A stretch of 64,000 nt of DNA from Chiloscyllium plagiosum. Its lineage: Eukaryota. Position numbers and translations under genes: made by a program. The notes under the pieces were generated by a model. It searched no databases. It had not been told where the DNA came from and worked only from the letters and a program-made list of their open reading frames with translations. Numbering within the stretch: the first letter of the stretch is position 1; every line of letters starts with the position of its first letter. The stretch spans positions 55,407,345 through 55,471,344 of the forward strand of contig NC_057713.1 in NCBI RefSeq assembly GCF_004010195.1, given 5' to 3'. Of the stretch, positions 2,901 to 61,129 are shown in pieces.

Positions 2901-5900
2901 AATATAATGATTAATGGAGAATGACAGTAAAGAACTTGTAGTACTATAATTCCATTGCTTATAGGTTCAGTAATAAGAATTCATTGTGGAATATCTAATC
3001 TTTGATGTTTGGGCATTCATCATTTTTATCATTTATTGAACATGCATGGTGTGTAGTAAATGCTTTTATAATAAATTACCATCTCATCCTTTTTGACCCA
3101 ATACAAAACAAATGTTGTTGAAAAGTCCATCCAAATTTGAACAATTTAATAGTGAAATGATGGTGTTTAATGCACACATTTAGGAAAACTGTCCACTGAT
3201 ACATCTACCGCTATGGTGTGGATTTTTCCTTTTCTAATATCGATCGATTCTAACGCAGGTCAAGGGAATTAACAGACATCCAACAACATAGATATAATCA
3301 AGCAGCCTAAGTTGTTCTTTCTGAAGTAGTGAAACAGCTGGCAAATCAAGGATTTTGTTAAAATTAGTTTTAAATTTCAATTTTTTACTCAACTGAGGGA
3401 AGCATATGCTCTTACTCTGACAAAGGTGATTACTTGCAGCTATGACATGTTGGAGAATCAGTACTGCATTGGACGAGAGTTGCTGTAGCAACGTGGTAGG
3501 TGGTGAATGAAGAGACTTTAGGACAATCTTGAAAAACCTGACTACGCCTCATGGAGAGAAGCCCTCTGTGAAACCGGAAGAAATTACCCTTAGCTATAAC
3601 ATGGGAAGATTCACTATTGATTTTAGCAATATAACTGATCATTGGTATATGAGAGTCAATGGGGCACTATCTAATCTTTCCTCCTTTACTCCACAGAAGC
3701 CTTGGCTGTAATTCTGAGTGGATGTGATATCCCTCTACCTAACTAAATGTTGGGAGTGACCCAGCCTTCAAAGGAAATCCAAGTGGATATTTTTGTTGTT
3801 GGGCCATTACTTGCCTCAGAGTAATACTTCTACCCCAAGTCAAATGGCTAGTAGCTTTCTAGATAGCTGCATGGGAATAGTGGCCACTGCTAAGAGTGTA
3901 GCTAATCCCAAATGAGGAACATTGGTGGAGACTGGACCACCAAACTAAGTGAGGCACTCTTGTCAGGTTGGAAGAAAGTCAGCCAGACCCCAGCAAGGGC
4001 AATGGGTGGAAGCTCCAGTGGGGCGGATGTGGAAGTAACAAACAGAGATGGGAGTAATTTGTGCAGAATAATGTTGAACACATCCCACCCCTCAGCTTTC
4101 AAATATGCCAGCAGGGGGCATAAAATCCAGCTACTCAATTCATTTGAGTTGCTGTAGTCATGGGAGAGGCTCCGTGATATTGTAAATGTTAACACATAGT
4201 GCCTCATAATTGTAACATGTTGATGTGTGTGCATAATTCATCACAACCACTTGGTTCCTGCTGTCAGCTGTTACTACTGTTATATTCTAATTTATGTTCA
4301 CAACAGCATAAGAGGATATTTAGAATGCAATGTTGTTGTGAACACTGCTCTGGGATATATGATTGTGTAGAATCCTCCTTACTTTGGTCAGGTTAAAATC
4401 AGGAACTCACTAATTTTAGCAAATCTTGCGCAGTTACTAATTTATGCCACCACTCATTGACATTTTTAAGCTCCAACATCATTGTATCACACAAATTTTT
4501 TCAAACTTTTCTTTTAATATGCAACATTATTATACATCATACAATATTTAGGTGTTAGGCTGTGACATATATTGTCTTGCAGTGGTGGATTCTGTGGTTA
4601 TTATGTACCAATATTAATATCTGATGTTTCATAAATTGGATGAATGAATTACTTTTCATTTTCATGACATATCATTGCAAAATTGCAATCATTCATGAAG
4701 CATTTCTCTTTCTGAAAACAAAGGGCATGTGTAAGAATGTGATATGTGCATTTTAATTGCGCTTTTGCTTATAAAACGAAGTCCCATGTTTGAAGAACAG
4801 TTAAGGAATTTGCTAAAAAAGGATTCGGAGCTGGTGTTGTGTGATATTTAGCTAAAAAAGGAAAATTACTTCATGATTATGCGTAAACAGAAGCAGCTTG
4901 TTGGCACACAACATTGATTTCTAATCAACCTAAAAGTACCTAAGAAAATAAATGTTTTAAAGTATATATTCTATGATGATACAAACTCCTTCTAAGAATA
5001 CACATTGGTTGTCATGATTTAAGATAAGTATGTTGTAATGCTCAGTAGCTCAATAACCCAAGAAACTTGTCAGTATCACCATCAAGTTTCTAGTTATCCT
5101 CTTGTTCTTAGGAAACTTCTAAATAAGTGGCTGGAGTGTAACCAAATCTCAGATTGTCTTGCCATCAAGCTCAAAATGAATCTCAAATCTGTCTGGATGG
5201 ATGGTAGGAACTGGGGAACAACTTTACTGACACTGATCAATTAAGAATGCTCATGAAGTGGACTACTATTCACAACAGAGATCTGCTGGTCCACCTTAAC
5301 TGATACCAAAATCTGCCACCTTAGCTACCTTGGCAATGCCGTTGATAGAGGTAGCTGCTGTTGATGCACAATTGTATATATTGCATTTTTCATATCTTTC
5401 TATCCTTCAGGGTCATCAAAACATCACCAAATCAATCATCTTGTGGCATATAAAGTGTGCTAAGCATTGGTTACAGATTGCCTTTTGGCTGGCATCCTAA
5501 CCAAACATTCATCATCAGCTGTAAAAGCAACCACTGAGGGAACTGTTCCAGCACCTTCTGTATTTTCATGAATCCTTGAAGGTCATGCAAGATCATTTTA
5601 GTGTGCTGGAGTAAGGAAGGCAGGCTCTGAAACTGGGAGGCTGAAACTTACAGTGGCAAATTTGGAGCCATGAGGATGACTAAAGCAACAGTTATTTCTT
5701 CATTGACCATGGATCAGCCAATAAGGCTGACAACTACATTGTCCGGGTTCATCCTGATGTTTGTAAAATGGTAGGGGTATAAAGTTGTTGCCAATTGGCC
5801 AATCCTCTGGAGGAAGGTGAATTACCAGAGGTCGTAATTGACATTAGTGCTTAAGACATAGTAAGGGGCATTTGGTCCTACAATTGAATTTGGGAACCTA

Positions 5901-5949
5901 GGTGGAAAATTAGCAAAATACCTTTCCAAGCCAGATGGGTTGCATCTGA

Positions 5950-6046
5950 TTATTCCTGATGAAGGGCTTTTGCCCGAAACGTCGATTTTGCCTGTCTTCG
6001 GATGCTGCCTGAATTGCTGTGCTCTTCCAGCACCACTGATCCAGAA
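5950..6046 (+). mobile_element. Penelope-like element terminal remnant (family 1) with 9-bp TSD TGCATCTGA
   Basis: Same sequence as the 3' end of the PLE at 21430-21530. TGCATCTGA occurs at 5941-5949 and 6047-6055. Confidence 0.85.
5952..5987 (+). ncRNA. Minimal type I hammerhead ribozyme motif
   Basis: attc-CTGATGA-a-GGGC-tttt-GCCC-GAAA-CG-TC-gatt: intact core boxes, stem II, palindromic ACGU stem III and GUC triplet; stem I is short and imperfect. Confidence 0.75.
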
Positions 6047-9000
6047 TGCATCTGAACAGAGTTAGGACTTAGTTCTGTGTGGGCATTCAGTTAGTGTTTT
6101 CGGGGAGGGCTTAAATCAACTCAGCAAATCATATCATGGTGCACAAAATACTGGAGAGAGAAATAGCATTAATATAGAGTTAATAGGTGCAGTTGGATAA
6201 GGGAAAATGTAATGAAATGAAAATAATGAAAGGGTTACACTGCATGTAAGTTACTGCATGGAGTAAAGTTAATAAGGTTGGTAAGTAAAGGTATGGATTG
6301 CTTTGTGGGATTATAATGTTGTGGCATCAGCAAAGACCAGTCCTCCGGAAGGTCTGATCTATCTGTTAGATATTCCGTGTTCCAAGGTGTTCAGAAAAGA
6401 TAGGAAAAGGTAAAAAAATGAGGAGGTGTCATGTTTGGATAAGGACAGCATTGTAATATTGGAGAAAGTGGATGTTTCAGAGGGTTCAAGGGCAGAAGGA
6501 ATTTAGCTGGAGCTAAGGAATAAATGGTATTCAGTTACATTTTGCTGTGTAACACACAGAGCATCAGCTAGTGGAAATGATGCAGAGAAACAATTCTATA
6601 AGGAAATTATGAAGATGTGTAAACATCATTGAGTAGTTATAATGGCACAAACAAATTACTTGTACATCCACTAGGATAGTGGTGGATTAAGGTGTATTGA
6701 GGAGCATATACGTTTAGATTGTATTCAGGAAAATCTCCTAAAGCAGTACATATCTAGCCCAACAAGAAATGAAGCCCTGCTATCCCAGGTTCGTGGGAAT
6801 GAGGTAATCAAGTAGATCCCCATGAGACAATACTGGAACATTTGGTATCGTAAGGTTTAGGATGATGGTGGAAAATGACATTGGTCAATCCATAGTAAGA
6901 ATGATCAACCAGTAATGAGTGGACTTAATGGGGCAAGAACAGCTGGGCTGGATAGATTGAAATCAAAAGTTGGTGATAAAAAAAGTTTTTGAAAATTTAA
7001 AGAAGAGATTATTTCAGCACAGTCAAGGTATATTTCCCACAAAAGGAAAAGTAGAGCAAACAAATCCAGAGCTCCCCGGATACAAAGGAGATACAGTCGG
7101 CACTTGGTTTATCAGGCAGTGGGACTGCACGAGATGCAGCTAAGGATATTGAGAAAAGTGTAAGTGGAAATTCAAAAGCATTGGCAATTATCTTTCAATT
7201 TTTCCTGGACTTTAGGGTGATGCCAGTGGATTAGCGATATGTACCTTTTTCAAAAATGTTTGTAAAGATTATCCCAGTTATTACAGACTAGTGAGCTTAA
7301 CTATGATGGTAGGCAAATTTATATAAACAATTATTTGGGATAGAATTAATAATCACATTGTAAAAATGTGGATTGACTCAGTAAAGTCAACACAGATATA
7401 ATGAGGGAAAATAATGTCTAACTAATTTGCTGCAATTTCTTAAAGAGATAACAAAAAGAGTTTATGTAGGAAACCCTGTTGTAGTGGTATTTCTGGACAG
7501 ATAAAATGTGTCCCAAATTCCAAACAGAGCCACACAACAAATCTGTGAAGAAAATTACAGGTCATGCAATAAGGGAGACAGTGTAACATTGTTATAACAT
7601 TGATTGAGGGATAGGAAACAGGGAATGGTGGTTAATGGGGATTTTTTTCAGGTTGGAAGAAGGTTTGTAATGGAGTTCCACTGGGTTGAAGTTTGGATCC
7701 TTGCTTTCACTGACATATAAAAGTGATCTAGACTTTGATGTGCAGCAGACAATTTCAATTTTTTTACTGAATTTGGGAGGATTTTAAATGGTGATCATGG
7801 TGTAGAACATCTATGATGATATAATGGCTTTAAGAGGTGTATCTTTTCTTTGTGAAGAAAGGTTCAGACAGATATACTGAGTGGTCTGGTGAAAGACAAT
7901 AGAATAAACAGCTTGTGAGGCCTTGGGATAGTTATTTTTAAAGTTGGAATAATAGAAGAAACCTGAATGGGTGGTGTCACTCTCCCACAGAACCAAAAGT
8001 TTAAGTTATAGCTGACCTTTCTGCAGTTGCTGAAGTATTGAAGCTGGATATGGAAGCTCTTAAATCTCTCTCTATTCGAGCTGGTTTTGTCTTCTTGCTG
8101 CTAGAATTGCATGTGAGACAATCTATTTTACTGAATTTGTCTTTGCCAAAGGTGTGATAATAGGATATTGTTATATTGGAATAGTAAATTAGTAGCAGTT
8201 AACATAAATATTATTTCTTTATGTATTTTATTAAGTTACAGTTAAGCCAATTCTTTTCATTTATTTTTATTTTGTCTATATTTTAACTGTAGCATAAAAC
8301 TAGAGTGTTTTGTATATAGTTGACTAATTGGACCAATCAAATTGCATCGTGAATGCAATGCATATATATAATATATATTGTACACACACACACACATATA
8401 TTTTTAATATATTTTGAGAGGAATTGGTCCAGTCCATAACAAATTGGGAGTTCTTGTTGGGATCAAAATCTCTACTTCCAGATTGATATTAAGATTATTA
8501 GACGCAAAAGCTGTGAGTGGTGAATGCTTGTGATTTCTTTTTGGGTATTGAACTTGGTTGGTTTAAATAGGGTGCGCCTTGTGTAATAATGGCTCTTTCA
8601 GTCACTAAGAATTTCCAGGGCTAGAAGAAGTCACTTTGGGAGGTTTACAGAAAATGAGAAAGGCAAAGATTTTGGAATTGATAGATAAGCTGGTTGCCTT
8701 TGTCCATGTGAAAAGGGGAGGTAATAGCAGCAATATCTCTACACTTAGATTGCCAGAAATGCCATCAGAATAATTGGAAATGGCTAAAATTCAATTACAA
8801 ATGAAGGATCTTGAATATGAAAAGGAAATTAAACAGAATGAATTATCATTGAAAGCGGAAGAAAAGCAGAAAGAAAGAATAGCTGTATCAAAGGAAAAAG
8901 ATAAGGAAAGAATAGACCTGGCAGAATAAGAAGACAAGGAAAGGAAGACCCTAGCAGAAGAATGGGAGAAAGAGAGTGTTTTTGAACTTCAGACGTTGGA

Positions 9001-10125
9001 ACTGAAAACTCAAAGTTGACTTAAAATGGCAAAGGTAGAGGTGAAAGGTAGGAGTAGTGATGAGGACAATCCCATTGAAGCCAAGGTTTGGTGGGGATCT
9101 GTTTAAATATGTCCAAATGTTGCAAAATTTCATTGAGAAGGACGTGGAAGCCTTTTTCATTTCATTTGACAAAGTGGCTAAACAGATAAAGTGGCCAGTA
9201 ACGATGTGGGTATTGTTGATCCAAACTAAGTTGGTCGATAGATTTAGTGAGGCATTTGTACCACTATCAGAAGAGATATCTGTGGAGTACAATAAGGTGA
9301 AAACATAATAAGGTGAAAACATTAAGTACATATGTCCTATACTAAAGCCTACAGATGTTTTACAGATCTAATGAGGAAACCTGGTCAAACGTATATTGAA
9401 AGGATCAAACAAGGTAATTTTGATAGATGGAGAAGGGCATTGAACATAGATCAAACATGTGATATGCTTAGAGAGACAATTATTTTGGAGGAATTCAAAA
9501 ATTAGCTTCCTGATGTAGTGAGAACTCATGTGGAAGAGCAAAGTTAGATTGCAAGATCGATGTGGTCCACTGCTTTTCGTCATTTATATAAATGATTTGG
9601 ATGTGCACACAGCAAGAATAGTTAACAAGTTTTCAGATGACACCAAAATTGGACGTGTAGTGGACAGCGAAGAAGGTTATCTCAGAGTTCAAAAGGATCT
9701 TGATCAGATGAGCCAATGGGCCAAGAGGTGGCAGATGGAGTTTAATTTAGGTAAATGCAAGGGGCTGCATTTTTGAAAGGCAAATCCAGGCAGGACTTAT
9801 ATAGTTAATGGTAAGGTCCATTGTCAGTGGAATTGTCAGGGGAATTGTCAGTGGGAGGTTGGGGGGGTTGCTGAAGAAAGATACCTTGTAGTGCAGATTC
9901 ATAGTTCTTTGAAAGTGGAGTCTCAGGTAGAAGGTATAGGGAAGAAGGCATTTGTTATGTTTTCCTTTATTTGTCAGGGCATTGATTGGTTGTACAGGAC
10001 ATTGTTTAGGCCACTTTTGTAATATTGTGTGCAATTTTGATCTCCCTCTTATTGGAAAATGTTGTGAAACTTGAAAGCGTTCAGAAAAGATTTGCAAGAC
10101 TGTTGCCAGGGTTAAAAGGTTTGAG

Positions 10126-10255
10126 GACAAAGTGAGGACTGCAGATGCTAGAGCTCAGAGTCAAGAGTGTTGTGCTGGAAAAGCACAGCAGTTCAGGCAG
10201 CATCTGAGGTGCAGGAGAATCGATGTTTCGGGCATAAGCCCTTCCTAATGAAGGG
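10126..10255 (-). mobile_element. PLE family 1 terminal remnant (inverted) with truncated hammerhead
   Basis: aaagtgaggactgcagatgct...gctggaaaagcacagc...tttcgggcataagcccttc matches 19997-20050 and 59860-59980. Confidence 0.85.
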
Positions 10256-10384
10256 ACTGTTTTCTTTGGAGCTTTGGAGGCTGAGAAGTGACCTTATAAA
10301 GGTTTATAAAATCATGAGGGGCATGGATAGGGTAAATAGCCAAGTCTTTTCCATGGCGTGGGGGAGTCCAAAACTAAAGGGCAT

Positions 10385-19759: not shown

Positions 19760-19999
19760 TAGTTAAGAGTCAACCACATTGTAGTGGATCTGGGGTCACA
19801 TTTAGGCAGGCCAGATAGGGGTGGCAGATTATATCTCTAAAAGGCATCATAAACCAGATGAGTTTATGCAACATTTAATGTCAATATTACTGACCAGAAA
19901 CAAACGTTCAATTTCAGATTATTTCAAATTCCACCAATTGCAGTATTGGGATTTAATCCCAAATCATCAGAACATTAGCCTGGGTGTCTGGATTATGAG
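19760..19999 (-). mobile_element. tRNA-derived SINE (second family), interrupted by the PLE; its head resumes at 21541-21560
   Basis: Homologous to 41035-41360 (+) and 47960-48270 (-). Confidence 0.75.
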
Positions 20000-21531
20000 A
20001 AAGTGAGGACTGCGGATGCCGGAGATCAGAGTCCAAAAGTGTGTTGCTGGTCTCTGATCTCCAGCACCTGCAGTCCCCACTTTCTCCTATTGCTGCAACC
20101 TTATTGCAAAACCTCTTCCAAGGATGTCCACGTTGAAGATGTTTTCCTCCTCCTTCCACAAGGATCTCAGTGAGTCTCTCTCTGACTGCACCCCAAGGTC
20201 GTTATTGGTGCCACCTCATGCTCCGACGAGGAGGTTGAACAGTTCATCAACTTCACAAACACCTTCTACCCTGACCTCAAGTTTACCTGGACCATCTCAG
20301 ATCTCTTCCTGGACCTCTTTGTCTCCCTCTCTGGTGACCAACACAACACAGACATCTATTTCAAACCCACTGACTTCCACAGCTACCTGGACTACACTTC
20401 CTCCTACTTCCCCCACCTCATGAAAAAGTTATCCCTTACTCCCAATTCCTCCACCTCTGTTGTATCTGCTCCCAGCAGGAGCAATTCCACTCCAGGACAT
20501 CCCAGATGGCCTCTTATTTCAAGGACCGCAACTTCCCTCCGATGTGGTCAACTATGCCCTACTGCGCATCTCCTCCACTTCCTGCACCTCTGCCCTTGAA
20601 CCCCACCCTCCCAACCACAACAAGGATAGTATCCCCCTCATCCTCACCTTCTACCCCACTAATCTCCTGATATATCGCATTATCCTCCGCCATTTCCACC
20701 ACCTACAATCAGACTCCACCACTAGAGATATATTTCCCTCCCCACTCCTATCTGAATTCTGCAGAGACCATTCCTTCCGCAACTCCCTCGTTAGGTCCAC
20801 CCTCACCCCACTAACCCATCCTTCCCTCCCAGCATGTTCCCTCGCCACCGCAAGAGGTGTAAAACCTGCACCCACACCTCGCCTCCTCACCTCCGTCCAA
20901 GTTCCCAAAGGATCCTTCCACATCTGGCAGAGATTTTCCTGCACATCCAAACACCTCATCTACTGTTTCCGTTGCTCTCAATGTGGTCTCCTCCTCACTG
21001 AGGAGACAGGATACCAACTTGCGGAACGTTTCAGGGAACATCTCTGGGACACATGTACTAAACAACCCCACTGCCCTGTGGCTCATATTTTAATGCCCCC
21101 TCCTACTCTGCCAAGGACATACAAGTCCTGAGCCTCCTCCACAACCAGATCCTAGCCACCCGATGCCTGGAGGAAGAATGCCTCATCTTCCACCTTGGGA
21201 CCCTCCAACTATACGGCATCAATGTCAATTTCACCAGTTTCCTCTTCTCCCCTCCCCCCATCTCATCGCAGATCCAACCCTCCAACTCGCCCTCTTGAAC
21301 TGTCCTACCTGTCCATCTTTCTTCTCACCTATCCACTCTACCCTTCCCACCTATCTATCGCATTCCCAGCTACCTTCCCTCCAGCCCAACCCCCACCTTC
21401 CTATTTATCTCTGAGCCCCCTTCCCCCATTACATTCCTGATGAAGGGCTTATGCCTGAAACAACTATTCTCCTGCCTCAAGGATGCTGCCTGACCTGCTG
21501 TGCCTTTCCAGCACCACACTTTTCGACTCTG
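19997..21531 (+). mobile_element. Penelope-like retroelement (RT C-terminus plus GIY-YIG endonuclease, decayed) with inverted 5' terminus and 13-bp TSD
   Basis: VIGATSCSDEEVEQFINFTNTFYPDLKFTWTIS...IYFKPTDFHSYLDYTSS...IPYSQF (RT thumb); FSCTSKHLIYCFRCSQCGLL..EET..LAERFREH (GIY-YIG with CxxC). TCTGGATTATGAG at 19987-19999 and 21528-21540. Inverted repeat 19997-20031 / 20052-20086. Confidence 0.92.
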
Positions 21532-23240
21532 GATTATGAGCCAGTGGCATTATCCATTTCATCATTATCTTTGACTAATCATCCTGCTATCTTATTGGCT
21601 GCGCTGTAACAATACATTTCCAATAGATTTGGCATTGATATCAATGTAAGGGTGAGAAGTTGTGGCTCATAGCCAGTTGTTAATCACTAAACATGGCTGA
21701 AAAAGACAATCTATTGCATTCAAGAGTAAATTCGTTTTCAATGGTGTGCTAAGTCATAATGACTAACAAACAACTTACCTGATTACGAAAGCATAATTTT
21801 ACATGTCTGGAGCCCCATTCTTTCAGGGAGTTTATATAATGTTAGTGATTTTTAAAAACATTATCTCTCTGTCTCTTTCATTTCTCTGTCTTAATCTAAT
21901 CCTTTGCTCCTTATTTTATTTCCTGCCTATGAATTACAACCAACTTATAATTACTAGATTATGCTGGGTTTGGAGTTAGGCCCTGTTGGAGCCAGGAATG
22001 GATATGAGTGAGTTCTTCAAGCCTGTGATTCAGTTTCCCAGCACAATCCCAAGCCTGAGACAATTTTGTCATCCAGGAAAATGAGAGGCCAGACTGCCAC
22101 CCTTAAATGGTGTGGAACCAATTAAGCTCATTAAGGATCACTGATGAAGATTTTACAGTTTTCCTCCAGGTTCCTGCATGCAGCAAAGGCAAAGTTAACA
22201 GCCTGAGGTGACCTAATTGTGGCAGTCCGGGAGCCAGCACTTCAGGCAGGCGTAGAGATTCTCCTGGCTTGCTTCACTGCAGTATCAGCTACAGGCCACC
22301 CCTCAAAAGGCATTCAGCTCTTTCCCAGCATTAGTAAATAGGAAGCCATTTTTAAATGCCATAATACCCTATTCCTGCTTTCAAGATGATGGACCTTTCA
22401 GCTTCCAGAAGCTGCCCACTACCAGTGGTTTGTGAGCCCACTCTTCTGCCTCTAATTGACCACCTTGGGTAAAGCATAGATCGGTGACTGCTTCCCAAAC
22501 CATGCAGGCTTTTTTGCACCTATTTGAATTTGACAGAATGGATCAGAAATCCACAGGGAAAATCCAACCCAACATGCTTAGTGAGTATTCTTCATTCTGA
22601 TTGGTTGCAGAGTCATACTGCTTCAACCCTGCTCACATATACTATAGTGGGGCGGCGGGGGAGGGGCAGAGTTCTAATTTAGACTCAAAGGTTTAAAAGT
22701 CTGCAAAAATCTATGCGGGCATCTGTTAGCTCAGAGAGCAGTGAACAAATACTATTCCTTGCCAGTGTCTGTAAAACCAGCCAATCTTTTAAGTAATGAT
22801 TGGCTGGTTCATGTCTGAACATCAGTCATGAACTTTGGTTCAATATTTTTTAAAAAAATCTATGTAACTCAGATGAGTAAACAAAAAAACAAATTTAACA
22901 CATTACAGGGCTCTTTAATTATGTAGCAGTGAAATATAATAAAGTACTAACGTGGGAGACTTCCTTAAAATAGACTTTCTTTGAAATAGCCTAACATCTG
23001 TACAGAAATAATGCATACTGTATTAAAATTATCTGTCATAAAGCACATCTATGACCCCAGAACACCAAATGTTTAACCCCTATTCTAATCCTGATATCAC
23101 TCATCTCATCATTAGCATCTAATGCAGTTGAAGTCCTTGACTGAATAATGTTGTCAAAAGTGCTTTACAATTCTTTACATAGCAAAGGAACAGCAATAGG
23201 TATTTTCCTCCATTCAGTGAGATCATGGTTGATTTGTGAT

Positions 23241-53500: not shown

Positions 53501-55068
53501 TGGGTCCAAGCAACTTGTATAAAGGAGTTAAAATTGTAATAGTGTTTATCTGTGATTCTTGGTCTAATAAAGTTTTGCCTGATGAAATGACTAGGATTAA
53601 ACAAAATAATCAAAGTGGAAATCACACAACATTTTGTATAAAATGACATTCCAAGTCTGTTTTTTGCATTCTAGTTCTGATGAGTGCGAGACAAAAAGTT
53701 TCAGTTTGCCTCTTTTTCGTAATGTTTAAATCACACCACTTGAGATTCTTTCAAAAGTCAAATAAGTACAAAATTATAATGAAGCGTGATATGCAATAGT
53801 TCTGACTATTTCTGACAGTTTTTTTTCCTTAAATTGTTTCTGCTGAGCAGTAACTGGTAATGATATCACCATTGAGTACTGACTTGAAGCATTTACTGAC
53901 ACTAATTGCAAGGATGCTAAATAACCTGAGTAGAGATAGAGTCATAAACTTGGGGATGACTCAGTGCTGACTACACATGTGCAAACCAGTTAGCTACAAT
54001 TATGTCACTATGTCTCACCAAAAATAATCTTCAAGCAATAAAAAGGATTAACTAAGTTATAATTCATTATAACTGATCTGCCAATTGACTCCTGATGATG
54101 AGATTCTCAATCAGTTTTTATTAATTCCTTAATGACCTTCAAAGTGCTGCACATCTGCTTCCTCTTCTATTATCACTGTGTTTTGCAATATTAGCAAAGC
54201 AAAATCATTTCACAGTTAAGGAGGTTCACCTTCAAGTTCAATTATCCTTTTTAAATAGAAGTACTAACTTTTAATGATTTATGTTGCTGAAAACTGTTAT
54301 TGGCCACATTTTACTCTCAAAATAATGGTGAGGCTAATGGTGCAGTAAGGAAAAGAGCAGAATATTCATTGTGAATATCCAAAAGATGTTGTTTGTGATG
54401 CTCCGATGTCCTCCTCAGGATTGACATGCATTAAATGCCATTAATTTGGGTATTTTCATGTATGAAATCTGCCACAGATATTTAGTGTTGTAGTTGCAAG
54501 TACTTAGAACCATGTCCTTTATTGATGTGATAAGCATTAATGATTGTCGATCAGCCTCTACAGCACTGAATATGAACTATTACAACTGTAGTGTCTCATT
54601 CCGTTGTCTTGTAAATTGTTTTAATAAATTTTGATAAGTCAATGTTGAAATTTTTCTAATTTTGAATTTTAATTGTAAGGGTGCACATGCAAGTTTGAAT
54701 CATGCCAGATACTATTATATGGAATGTTTTCGCAAAGACAGTTGATATTTCAGACAACAAAACAATTGTTTTGACTACAAAAGTTCAGACTACAATGTCT
54801 TCATAAAATCCAATTGAAAATTGGTGCTGGATTCCTCTTTGTTCCTCCTTATTGCTCACAAGATTTATCAGGCGTCCAGTGCAGGGAGCATTTTATGTGA
54901 CTACTGGAACAAACCTATTTGTCTCAATTCTACAATTATTTCATGAAAGTTGAGAGTGCTCACTGCTTTCGTATATAGCACCTTATTAATTTTATAACTT
55001 TATTAAAACATTTTCTTTTCCCTGAAGTGGCCTAAGTCACAACTGTGTCAGAAAAGAACAAAAGTTTA

Positions 55069-55357
55069 ACAAAGTTAAAAATCACACAACACCAGGTTAT
55101 AGTCCAACAGGTTTAATTGGAAGCACAGTAGCTTTCGGAGCGACGCTCCTTCATCAGGTGATTGTGATGAATCAGAGCTGAAAATGTGTTGCTGGAAAAG
55201 CGCAGCAGGTCAGGCAGCATCCAGGGAACAGGATCACCTGATGAAGGAGCGTCGCTCCGAAAGCTAGTGTGCTTCCAATTAAACCTGTTGGACTATAACC
55301 TAGTGTTGTGTGATTTTTAACTTTGTACACCCCAGTCCAACACCAGCATCTCCAAAT
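55069..55357. mobile_element. Hairpin-shaped PLE mini-insertion (family 2 arms, family 1 spacer) with 15-bp TSD
   Basis: 94-bp inverted arms 55069-55162 / 55233-55326 (2 mismatches seen), a 31-nt one-sided tail at 55327-55357, and CAAAAGTTTAACAAA at 55059-55073 and 55358-55372. Confidence 0.88.
55233..55271 (+). ncRNA. Minimal type I hammerhead ribozyme motif (intact)
   Basis: CAC-CTGATGA-a-GGAGC-gtc-GCTCC-GAAA-GC-TA-GTG: stem I CAC/GUG, 5-bp stem II, palindromic AGCU stem III and CUA triplet (predicted cut after 55266). Confidence 0.8.
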
Positions 55358-55499
55358 CAAAAGTTTAACAAACTGTCTGATTTTACCCAAAGCATAAGGA
55401 TTCTTTATAGACTGAATTTTTCTGTTCAACCTCACAGTTTGCTCTTACCTGAATACTCCCTGGCCCTTATTTGTTTAAAATCTGATTTAACATCTTCAC

Positions 55500-58125: not shown

Positions 58126-59859
58126 GTTTTTTTAAAATTGTGAATATACAAACACGTGACTATGTGATCACTCAGCCCACTCTGCCATTCAGCAAGCTCA
58201 TGGCTGATCTGTTTGTGTTTCAATTCTGCATTTCCTTCTATCCCAGTAACATTTGACTCACTGCTGCGAATCTATCTAACTCTGTGTTAAAAATATTTAA
58301 TGATCCTACCTCCAACAAGGTAAAGACAGGGGGTGAAGTCAAAGTTTATTCTAATATGCACTTGTTAAGACATTCTGATTTAATCGACATCAATCAATCA
58401 TGCACATCTTCATGTAGCTTCTCTAGGTATTTCAACCCTAAATGTATCTCTTGACGAGGAAGCAGATATTGCGTACACCTAGTCGGGCAAGCAAAACTTG
58501 AAAAAAAGAATCAGGTTGGTTCTCTGACATGTCCCACTTTTCCCAGGGGGGGCCTGGGAAATCTCAGTGAACATCATACTCTCTGCCCCTTTCAGCAGTG
58601 CAGGAGAACCTATAATGTAATCATAAGAATGAGTAGTGGATACATCTCGAAATTTATAGAAATTCTCAGTCCACACATGGGATGCCTGTTGTGCCACGTA
58701 GTAAGAGCAGAGTAGAAGTCAGAGCATCATGAGATTCATCTGCAGTGGTAACTTTCAAGGACAACATTGACAATTCTCAGGGCATTCATTTATGGAAATG
58801 CAAGCATTTCTTATCTGTAGAAACATCCAATTAATAATGTTGGGTTCAGGCAATTGGCTAACAGTTCAACCAACACTGGTACCTCCAGTCTTGCTTTCCT
58901 CTTTATCACCACCCATGTGAACAGCACACAACATTCATAGTCAGTCTGCTAGATGTCCTTCACTTCAAATACTGATTAGCCCTCCTGATCCTTGGGCAGT
59001 CTGTAGTCCATACATGGATATGATCCAAACAGAATCTATTTAATTGACTTCATCTAGGAATATTATACCAGATGTCTCATCACGTGCCCATCAGGGTTCA
59101 ACCCCTGTTGAACTTGTGACTCGGATACGAAGCTTCAACCATATTAATGCAGAAATACATATAACCATTTGGTTATTCCATACAATCTATTTGAATAATT
59201 GTGCAGAAGTAGTCAGTTTGAACACATTGGTTGCAAAATTTGATAGCACAGAAGAGAGGTTAGAAGTGAATGCAACATGAAGATACATACATAAAAACTA
59301 GGAGTGTCCTTCTTGGCCCTAATAACCTGCTACACCATTGACTAAGATCATGGCTGATTTGATTTTAACTTGCCCTCCATGTTCCTGTCTAGTCCTGATA
59401 ACCTTTCACCCCTTTGCTTATCCGAAATCGAGCTCATTAGAATATTCTTCATTGCGCAATATATGAGAATGTTGAATTGTCTATTCTCATCTTCATCTAG
59501 CGAAGGCAGATTCGGCAATCCCAGAAGAAGGGATCTCAGATCTGCCTTAACTTCAGTTCCCAAGATCCCCTCTAACACATTCGCTCTGGCACCACAATAC
59601 CTACGGATCTTCTAGCATGACCACAAGCAATGTGTGAGAGTAGTGATATCTATTTTGCATTTAGGGCACCCTGCAGATGCACCTTTCTTAAATTTTGCTA
59701 GCTGCTCCAGGGCCAAATGGGCACTATGGAGAATTTTTAGTTGCGTGCCTGCGCTTTATTGTAAATCAAAATCTTTTTCACATTCTCCCAGATATTCTGC
59801 CATGCTACCAACAATATTTCTGTTCCCAATTGCTGATTCCAGGCTCTGTAAAGCCTTTT

Positions 59860-60073
59860 AGGAGAAAGTGAGAACTGCAGATGCTGGAGATCAGAGCTGA
59901 AAATGTATTGCTGGAAAAGCGCAGCAGGTCAGGCAGCATCCAAGGAGCAGGAGCATCGACGTTTCGGGCATGAGCCCTTCTGAAGGAGGGCTCATGCCCG
60001 AAACGTCGATTCTCCTGCTCCTTGGATGCTGCCTGACCTGCTGCGCTTTTCCAGCAATACATTTTCAGCTCTG
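59860..60073. mobile_element. Hairpin-shaped PLE family 1 mini-insertion with 16-bp TSD, inside the L1
   Basis: 87-bp inverted arms 59892-59978 / 59987-60073 (1 mismatch seen), a 32-nt one-sided tail at 59860-59891, and GCTCTGTAAAGCCTTT at 59843-59858 and 60068-60083. Confidence 0.92.
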
Positions 60074-61129
60074 TAAAGCCTTTCCATATCTTTTGAGCCA
60101 CCTCCTCTCTGTAAATGATGGAGAGTACTGACTAAAAGGGTACTCGTACACCAACGTACTCTTCTCTCTGTCTTGAACTTATATGGCTGAGCCAAAAACA
60201 TGGTCCTTTTCTGTATGTAGTCCCTGACCTGAAAGTAGGGGAAGAGGTCCCTACTAGATAACCTGTTTTTATGGCTCAACTGTTCAAAAGACATCAAAAC
60301 TTCTCCCTCAAATAGATCTCCTAACAGGAGACTTCCCTGGCCTCCCATATCTTAAATCCGGAATTTATCAATCCCGACCTGAATCTTGGTGTTCCTACTA
60401 AAGGTGGAAATGGGGAGGTCTTACGTAGATTATCCTCGTTCTGCTGCATCATTCTTTTACAGTACTCAGCAATAGTTTTCATTCTGTCCATAAATAACAA
60501 ATTCAGGAGGGGACATTTTGCCTGGGAGGCCTCAATGTTGAGCCATCTTGACCTCGGATCCTTACACCCCTAATCACTCACATAAGACAAAAAAGAACTT
60601 ATTTGGTATCGCTTAAAGTCAGGGAAACCTCCCCTCCCAATTTCTGTGGAAGTTGCGACTTAGCAAATTTAATAAGAGGATGCCTGCAGTGCTAAATAAA
60701 AGATCCAAGCCAGCTATTAAGCCTCTGCAGCGCTTGTCTATGCAGCAACAACGGGAGCATTTTCATGGAGTATAGTAGGCGAGGAAGAACATTCATTTGA
60801 ATCAGAGCTATTCGACCTAGCCATGATATTGGTAACTCTTCCCAACGCTTAAAGTCTTGTTTTATCTTCTCAAACAATTGAGCAAAATTAGCTCTGTACA
60901 ACTGGTGAAAAGCGGGTGTAATGAAAATATCCAAATACAGGAAACCTTCCTGTGACCACCCAGAATGAAACTGAGTCCCATCTTCCAGATCAGTTATTCC
61001 CACAAGGCCTCTAAGGGCATGGCTTCCAATTTCATAAAATTAATTTTATACCACAAAAAAAACAAATAAATTAATATTTTGTATTAGACAGGGCACAGAC
61101 ATTGTTGGGTTAGCCAGAAAAAGAAGAAC

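Follow-up and report, generated by a model that had tools for sequence, protein, structure and literature searches.

A Penelope-like hairpin insertion with a piece of a second family in its seam, probably a functionless variant of a known insertion type

Positions 55059–55372 of the 64,000-nucleotide stretch of Chiloscyllium plagiosum DNA analysed here (referred to below as the window) hold a hairpin whose two arms belong to one Penelope-like element (PLE) family and whose centre belongs to another. How a piece of one family (family 1) came to lie in the seam of an insertion made from the other (family 2), and whether this took one integration event or two, is the question that the locus raises. 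A sequence-only reading had offered two answers, a switch of the reverse transcriptase (RT) between RNAs of the two families in one event, or a ribozyme-bearing mini-retroelement mobilised in trans. The window was compared with 7 of 24 listed public sequencing runs, which come from its own species (organism A) and from two relatives (organisms B and C).

The outer boundaries of the insertion are given by a 15-nt target-site duplication (TSD) at 55059–55073 and 55358–55372 (both on the + strand), which is the sole direct repeat of at least 8 nt between the two end zones; random flank pairs had no 10-mer in common in up to 20000 draws, overlapping draws being skipped. The TSD described in the sequence-only reading therefore holds, and so do its 94-bp inverted arms (55069–55162 and 55233–55326), which differ at 2 of 94 positions. 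The insert of 289 bp that it gave is indeed bounded by the TSD, but the DNA between the TSD copies measures 284 bp, and the larger figure includes 5 bases that belong to both TSD and arm. These are the last 5 bases of the left TSD copy and the first 5 of the inverted arm, and they can be read as a priming microhomology; an overlap of 4–6 nt between the TSD end and the start of the arm without a tail is found in all three TSD-flanked inserts of the window. A spacer of 70 nt separates the 94-bp arms. The inverted family-2 arm (55069–55166, − strand) runs from the inner start site to 55164–55166, a stop point common to many other copies, and thus extends 4 bases past the palindrome, so that the spacer resolves into 4 nt of filler (55167–55170) and 62–63 nt of family 1. 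The direct family-2 arm (55233–55326, + strand) is followed, on this side only, by a 31-nt family-2 tail (55327–55357, + strand) of the kind described in passages of PMC3846280 and PMC11167929.

This layout is already known as the inverted-pLTR-plus-tail PLE insertion. The locus has the features of an insertion unit of an endonuclease-bearing PLE: an inverted, 5′-truncated copy beside a direct copy (the 94-bp arms with 2 mismatches), a tail on a single side whose 31 nt lie within the 30–40-bp range, a TSD (15 bp) that is present once in the empty allele of organism B, and a minimal hammerhead in the repeat, as judged by a motif scan against the description in passages of PMC4209133. No coding copy of family 2 occurs in the window, and the family is a putative PLE by its architecture. 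A 23-nt match to a family-2 arm at 4831–4853 was dropped, as it had no further family-2 context.

A scan of the whole window for the minimal hammerhead core together with a stem II hairpin returned 5 motifs, two of which lie in the arms, with cores at 55238–55262 on the + strand and 55157–55133 on the − strand; the earlier claim of one core per strand is thereby borne out. The plus-copy motif (55235–55269, predicted cut after 55266) has a 3-bp stem I, a 5-bp stem II, an unpaired base before stem II and a palindromic 4-nt stem III. In the minus-copy motif (55129–55162), base 55128 beside the predicted cut disrupts stem I, the mismatch that had been reported there. Rfam, searched at E ≤ 1 over the window, gave 3 weak matches, with no hammerhead among them and none inside the element, and the hammerhead call therefore depends on the motif description in passages of PMC4209133. 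Whichever strand is transcribed, the hammerhead is made after its own complement, and folding predicts that a transcript of either strand forms a 94-bp duplex in which the hammerhead is buried. The predicted probability that the core is unpaired is <0.001, and the ribozyme fold could be imposed only at a cost of 56 kcal/mol. Since the transcript is predicted to form such a duplex, the element is likely to be without ribozyme activity and unable to spread as a unit. An active ribozyme on each strand was rejected because both cores are predicted to be buried. The element was also rejected as a non-LTR retrozyme, which requires a head-to-tail tandem with at least two hammerheads on the same strand, whereas those found here lie on opposite strands.

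Family 1, the donor of the spacer, is represented in the window by a longer copy at 19987–21540 (+ strand) that has a 13-bp TSD and decayed coding sequence resembling an RT thumb and a GIY-YIG domain. The decayed frames at 20186–21128 align to an 896-aa RT-domain protein (E 5e-11 and 1e-25), and the closest homologue found for the family-1 frames is 57% identical and annotated as a Chiloscyllium punctatum protein. Pfam returned no family for the decayed family-1 frames of the window, and two family-1 homologues gave RVT_1 and GIY-YIG matches slightly under the Pfam cut-offs, the C. punctatum protein being one that matched GIY-YIG. As the decayed frames align to an RT protein and the homologues match GIY-YIG, family 1 is an endonuclease-bearing PLE, its repeat being linked to an RT followed by a C-terminal GIY-YIG endonuclease. 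A CxxC remnant in the decayed copy at 19987–21540, and the full CX2-5CxxC motif in a homologue, recall the motif given for the linker preceding GIY-YIG in the Neptune/Nematis clade (passages of PMC8557442), and family 1 is perhaps Neptune-like. The 5′ part of the same copy is a short, tail-bearing inverted arm (19993–20050), and in its sense part the tail passes directly into an internally deleted RT-thumb/GIY-YIG body.

A pure family-1 hairpin at 59843–60083 (− strand) serves as a second comparator, with 90-nt arms, a one-sided tail, a 16-bp TSD and a 6-nt overlap between TSD and arm start. Its arms are 98% complementary, and its centre lies inside the hammerhead core, so neither copy has a whole core; it also yields a spurious weak match to an Rfam miRNA. 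Single-arm family-1 stubs are present at 5941–6055, with a candidate TSD of 9 bp, and at 10098–10261, inside a LINE-like fragment and with a candidate TSD of 7 bp. The ends of families 1 and 2 show no likeness beyond chance or the motif itself, 73 of 1000 shuffles reaching the local score.

Within the spacer, 55171–55233 and family 1 at 59890–59952 share 60 of 63 bases, and a blastn search confined to the window gives this match an E of 3e-24. This family-1 piece lies on the − strand, in the same sense as the inverted arm. It begins 2–5 nt from family 1's inner start site and ends 5 nt before the predicted hammerhead cut of family 1, and it contains no hammerhead core. It also lacks the 31–33-nt tail, and so is not the terminus of the family; the sequence-only reading had named the right family for most of the ~70-bp spacer and the wrong part of it. 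Along the top strand, 55074–55233 can be read as cDNA of PLE RNA throughout, first of family 2, then through the 4-nt filler, then of family 1. The filler is part of a 7-nt stretch (55165–55171, + strand) that is repeated at 55239–55245, so that a direct repeat brackets the family-1 piece plus 5 nt. Just 2 of the 256 possible fillers would recreate this repeat, in a test that was picked after the repeat had been seen. The repeat may have arisen by a stutter with the partner arm as template, or it may be the TSD of an insertion that came later. An aborted start at the tail end of family 2 was set aside as the source of the filler, since it gives a match of only 4 nt and the match to the partner arm is longer.

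The sequencing runs place the insertion in time. In organism B, a 4096-nt contig (run X9) joins 55058 directly to 55358, which represents the empty site with one TSD copy that the sequence-only reading had proposed to look for in relatives. In organisms A (X2) and C (X13), contigs enter the insert for 19–23 nt from each flank and then stop, a distance shorter than the 31-letter rule for bridging. Because flank contigs enter the insert at both ends in both species, the insertion is likely to be common to A and C. Compared with the window, the flanks show 38 differences over 1561 positions in C and 47 over 1502 in B; these counts and the 2 arm mismatches agree with each other and fit an insertion after B had split off, and the arms are likely older than the split between A and C. 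At 55038, 21 nt to the left of the TSD, 14 bases that the window lacks are present in organisms B and C, indicating that the lineage of the window has a small deletion beside the insertion. Neither spacer junction is crossed by the 24 longest of 83584 pieces from X1, X13 and X12, among which pieces of ~60 nt would have ranked; run X1 was read whole. With neither junction recovered in these three contig sets, the seam is read from the window sequence alone. A spacer-free joint of 55166 to 55233 in X1 (depth 6.6, 1 contig) was set aside as another allele because it also occurs in B, which has no insertion.

Joints in other copies bear on both sides of the seam. All 15 listed of 77 spacer-free joints run from 55162–55166 to 55232–55247, from which it follows that both family-2 arm ends of the element are ordinary ends of spacer-free hairpins. 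Filler letters, some of them derived from the partner arm, are common in the seams of other copies, as judged from the 12 rows listed out of 800 and out of 132. Loose ends of family-1 insertions cluster before 55176 (85 contigs in X13 and 106 in X12), and restarts in other family-1 copies appear as joints back to 55171 in X12 and X13. In X5, family-1 copies extend to the very position of their predicted hammerhead cut and then start again at the inner site (55233/55179 joint, depth 282), which is possibly the trace of copying off ribozyme-cut RNA and a subsequent jump. A joint from family 2 to family 1 elsewhere (55100 to 55176) occurs in 4 of 4 DNA runs from three organisms at ~3 to 26 times flank depth, with short sides of 20–26 nt and a likeness of 88 for which it is flagged as unreliable; it could stem from a jump that recurs, from insertions nested in one another or from a small family of chimeras. 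RNA run X21 of organism A contains transcripts of both families, with 1607 matching reads out of 12955460; no RNA run is listed as containing the locus itself.

The best reading of these data, in which we place about as much belief as doubt, is that both cut strands were primed on family-2 RNA and that the top-strand cDNA then jumped to family-1 RNA at its inner start site. The process would open with a staggered cut, 15 bp apart, to which the single TSD copy of the empty site testifies. The bottom strand would prime at the tail end of family-2 RNA, and the top strand 31 nt further in, at the inner start site; the grounds for this are overlaps of 5 nt and 2 nt and the two start sites that an anole PLE uses in vitro. 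The top-strand cDNA would pass the uncut hammerhead as far as 55166, copy 4–5 nt briefly from the partner cDNA, and restart on family-1 RNA at the inner site, where 62–63 nt would be copied up to the halt 5 nt before the predicted cut. The two cDNAs would finally be joined through a 1-nt overlap, making the hairpin a by-product of landing. Both DNA strands are cut and then extended by the anole PLE protein, a predicted dimer that starts at two RNA sites bounding the tail and accepts uncut RNA as template (passages of PMC11167929). An enzyme acting in this way would leave two arms with primers of their own and a tail on one side only. R2 and other RTs have been shown to jump between templates (passages of PMC8857657 and PMC2912911), and we saw no demonstration of such a jump by a PLE RT in the literature consulted.

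Several observations favour a jump within one event. A single TSD encloses everything and the empty site is clean. The family-1 piece is oriented as top-strand cDNA and starts where family-1 insertions end and where the arms of the comparators start, and restarts at the family-1 inner site are seen in other copies, at 55171 and 55179. Against it, the landing overlap is 1 nt, compared with 4–6 nt at target-primed starts.

The main alternative assumes two events, in which a family-2 hairpin formed first and family-1 cDNA entered its seam later, either by an insertion that made a TSD of 7 bp or through the patching of a break in the palindrome loop. We regard this as a serious but less probable rival. 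The 7-nt direct repeat around the piece is TSD-like and is recreated by few fillers, the single-arm family-1 copies of the window have candidate TSDs of similar size (7 and 9 bp), and any family-1 insertion primed from the top strand would likewise begin at the inner site. Base frequencies in the runs also speak for a later arrival of the piece. At 55224, the base of the spacer accounts for 50% of read depth in organism A, 6% in C and 8% in B, and is thus 7–9 times commoner in A, while the arms are likely to predate the A–C split; this is a single diagnostic site, the 93% likeness filter skews the percentages, and B and C have the variant too. A family-1 variant at 55181 reaches 18% in A and <1% in B or C. 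Together, the variants at 55181 and 55224 suggest recent, lineage-specific growth of a family-1 subfamily in A, and there is a hint that the subfamily with the spacer's 55224 base expanded after the A–C split, and hence after the arms had landed.

A later insertion would, however, have had to hit a target seam of only ~10 bp. Its TSD would need 5 more bases (55234–55238), and these are exactly the family-2 sequence before the right-hand repeat; filler templated by the partner also occurs at other seams. The reliance of the subfamily argument on one filtered site whose variant occurs in all three organisms counts against it as well. The switch between two family RNAs in a single event, as the sequence-only reading had put it, thus stands as the best reading, with a nested-insertion rival, a case that reading had itself foreseen, that gains support from the 7-nt repeat and the 55224 base; our weighing of the two uses rough estimates of copy number and target size.

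The other proposal of that reading, a mini-retroelement that combines two families, encodes no protein and spreads as one entity when a PLE protein mobilises it in trans, found no support and appears very unlikely. The element is compact and TSD-flanked, with an intact plus-strand tail at its end, and PLE termini can mobilise unrelated sequence in trans (passages of PMC3846280). But its left arm begins on bases native to this target site, its hammerhead cores are predicted to be buried, with the folding cost given above, and no spacer junction recurs among the pieces and joints that are listed for three DNA runs. The junctions of the locus itself likewise went unrecovered there; as other seam types are listed at several times single-copy depth, the result argues mildly against a high-copy chimera. 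Exact pattern scans for the left junction in metagenome contigs, and for a family-2 arm motif in metagenome, viral and prokaryote contigs, gave 0 matches each and carry no weight, since DNA of this animal is evidently absent from those collections.

An assembly artefact, with real arms and a misplaced family-1 piece between them, is highly improbable. Neither junction was recovered in X1, and the best-matching runs are without 4–6% of the sampled words, about what private seam words would explain; cleaned contigs are, however, expected to lose thin links between very deep repeats, and a start at the inner site, an orientation as cDNA and a structured filler are not expected of a misassembly. 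We give scarcely any credence to the idea that the piece was copied during seam repair from the DNA of the nearby hairpin at 59843–60083. That hairpin lies 4.7 kb away and is the closest of the 4 other window family-1 copies compared (60 of 63 bases), but the piece differs from it at 3 of 63 positions where both of its arms agree, with ~0.8 expected for its age (P ~0.04), and a DNA copy gives no reason for a start at the RT start site. Just as implausible is a chimera that pre-existed in RNA, by read-through from an antisense family 1 upstream of family 2 or by ligation of two RNAs at a ribozyme cut: capture of host DNA by PLEs is published (passages of PMC3846280), but read-through would need a chance stop at family 1's inner start site, and ligation was rejected because the junction is not at a cut, the joined family-2 end at 55166 lying ~38 nt from the predicted cut 55128/55129 and hence not being a ribozyme-made end.

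Taken together, the element is likely a stub-sized, dead, one-off PLE insertion, and a real, probably functionless variant of a known insertion type that is likely present as a single copy. No two-family PLE seam was found in the literature searched, whose coverage leaves subscription journals largely outside. A seam that is filled from a second family and entered at that family's start site would bear on how inverted PLE ends form: it would show that the top-strand arm is made independently from RNA and that start sites can serve across families. A broader proposal, that a PLE RT at work on one insertion resumes copying at the inner start site of an unrelated PLE family's RNA, and does so repeatedly across the genome, seems to us rather unlikely. 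If it were true, the joint of 55100 to 55176 in four runs would be another cross-family case, the inner start site would be a family-independent entry point for RNA, owing to a structure in common, to an RNA end formed beforehand or to a mixed dimer of the proteins, and termini could be swapped between PLE families, which would offer a route to new non-autonomous elements. A single non-coding and probably functionless copy with an ambiguous history is a modest clue to this rather than a new element.

The closest counterpart is the inverted-pLTR-plus-tail arrangement of Pen2a_Av from Adineta vaga (passages of PMC3846280 and PMC8557442), which has the same head-to-head copy, a 31-bp one-sided tail, a TSD and strong 5′ truncation. 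An inverted copy with a tail is given as typical of PLEs in PMC8557442, and captured-DNA spacers and template jumps have been proposed for insertions of the Pen2a_Av type in PMC3846280. The shark element differs in having no ORF, arms of ~100–125 nt and a TSD of 15 bp instead of 8–10, and also in the second PLE family represented in its seam, for which the passages of the two papers give no counterpart. For the anole PLE PAc (passages of PMC11167929), cutting and extension of two strands, two starts bounding the tail and the use of uncut RNA predict the arms and the tail of the shark element. The start site of PAc has no homology to the cut DNA, whereas the three inserts of the window show overlaps of 4–6 nt, and the assays in those passages used neither a second family nor a template jump.

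With respect to its ribozyme motifs, the element resembles the minimal hammerheads of metazoan PLEs (passages of PMC4209133), which have the same core, an unpaired base before stem II, a palindromic stem III and a short stem I. Stem I is 3 bp in the shark element and 4–5 bp in those hammerheads, and the shark motif is a predicted one. A double hammerhead on opposite strands has already been described there for PLE remnants, with mention of motif pairs 100–700 bp apart, but head-to-head copies such as those in the shark cannot make the same-strand dimer that the same source calls necessary. Animal non-LTR retrozymes (passages of bioRxiv 10.64898/2026.07.22.740005) are likewise non-coding, carry a type I hammerhead and derive from PLE repeats; they are head-to-tail tandems with two ribozymes on the same strand, whereas the shark element is head-to-head and its cores are predicted to be buried.

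The nearest parallel to the seam comes from LINE-1 twin priming and tripartite LINE chimeras (passages of PMC2912911 and PMC4476161), which have the same primers on two strands, inverted halves at the seam and a second RNA within one TSD. For the tripartite chimeras, PMC4476161 presents the same ambiguity between a double switch and a later nested insertion. LINE-1 uses another class of enzyme, and both shark arms copy the same segment. In the shark element, moreover, the second RNA would be that of another retroelement family, entered at that family's own start site.
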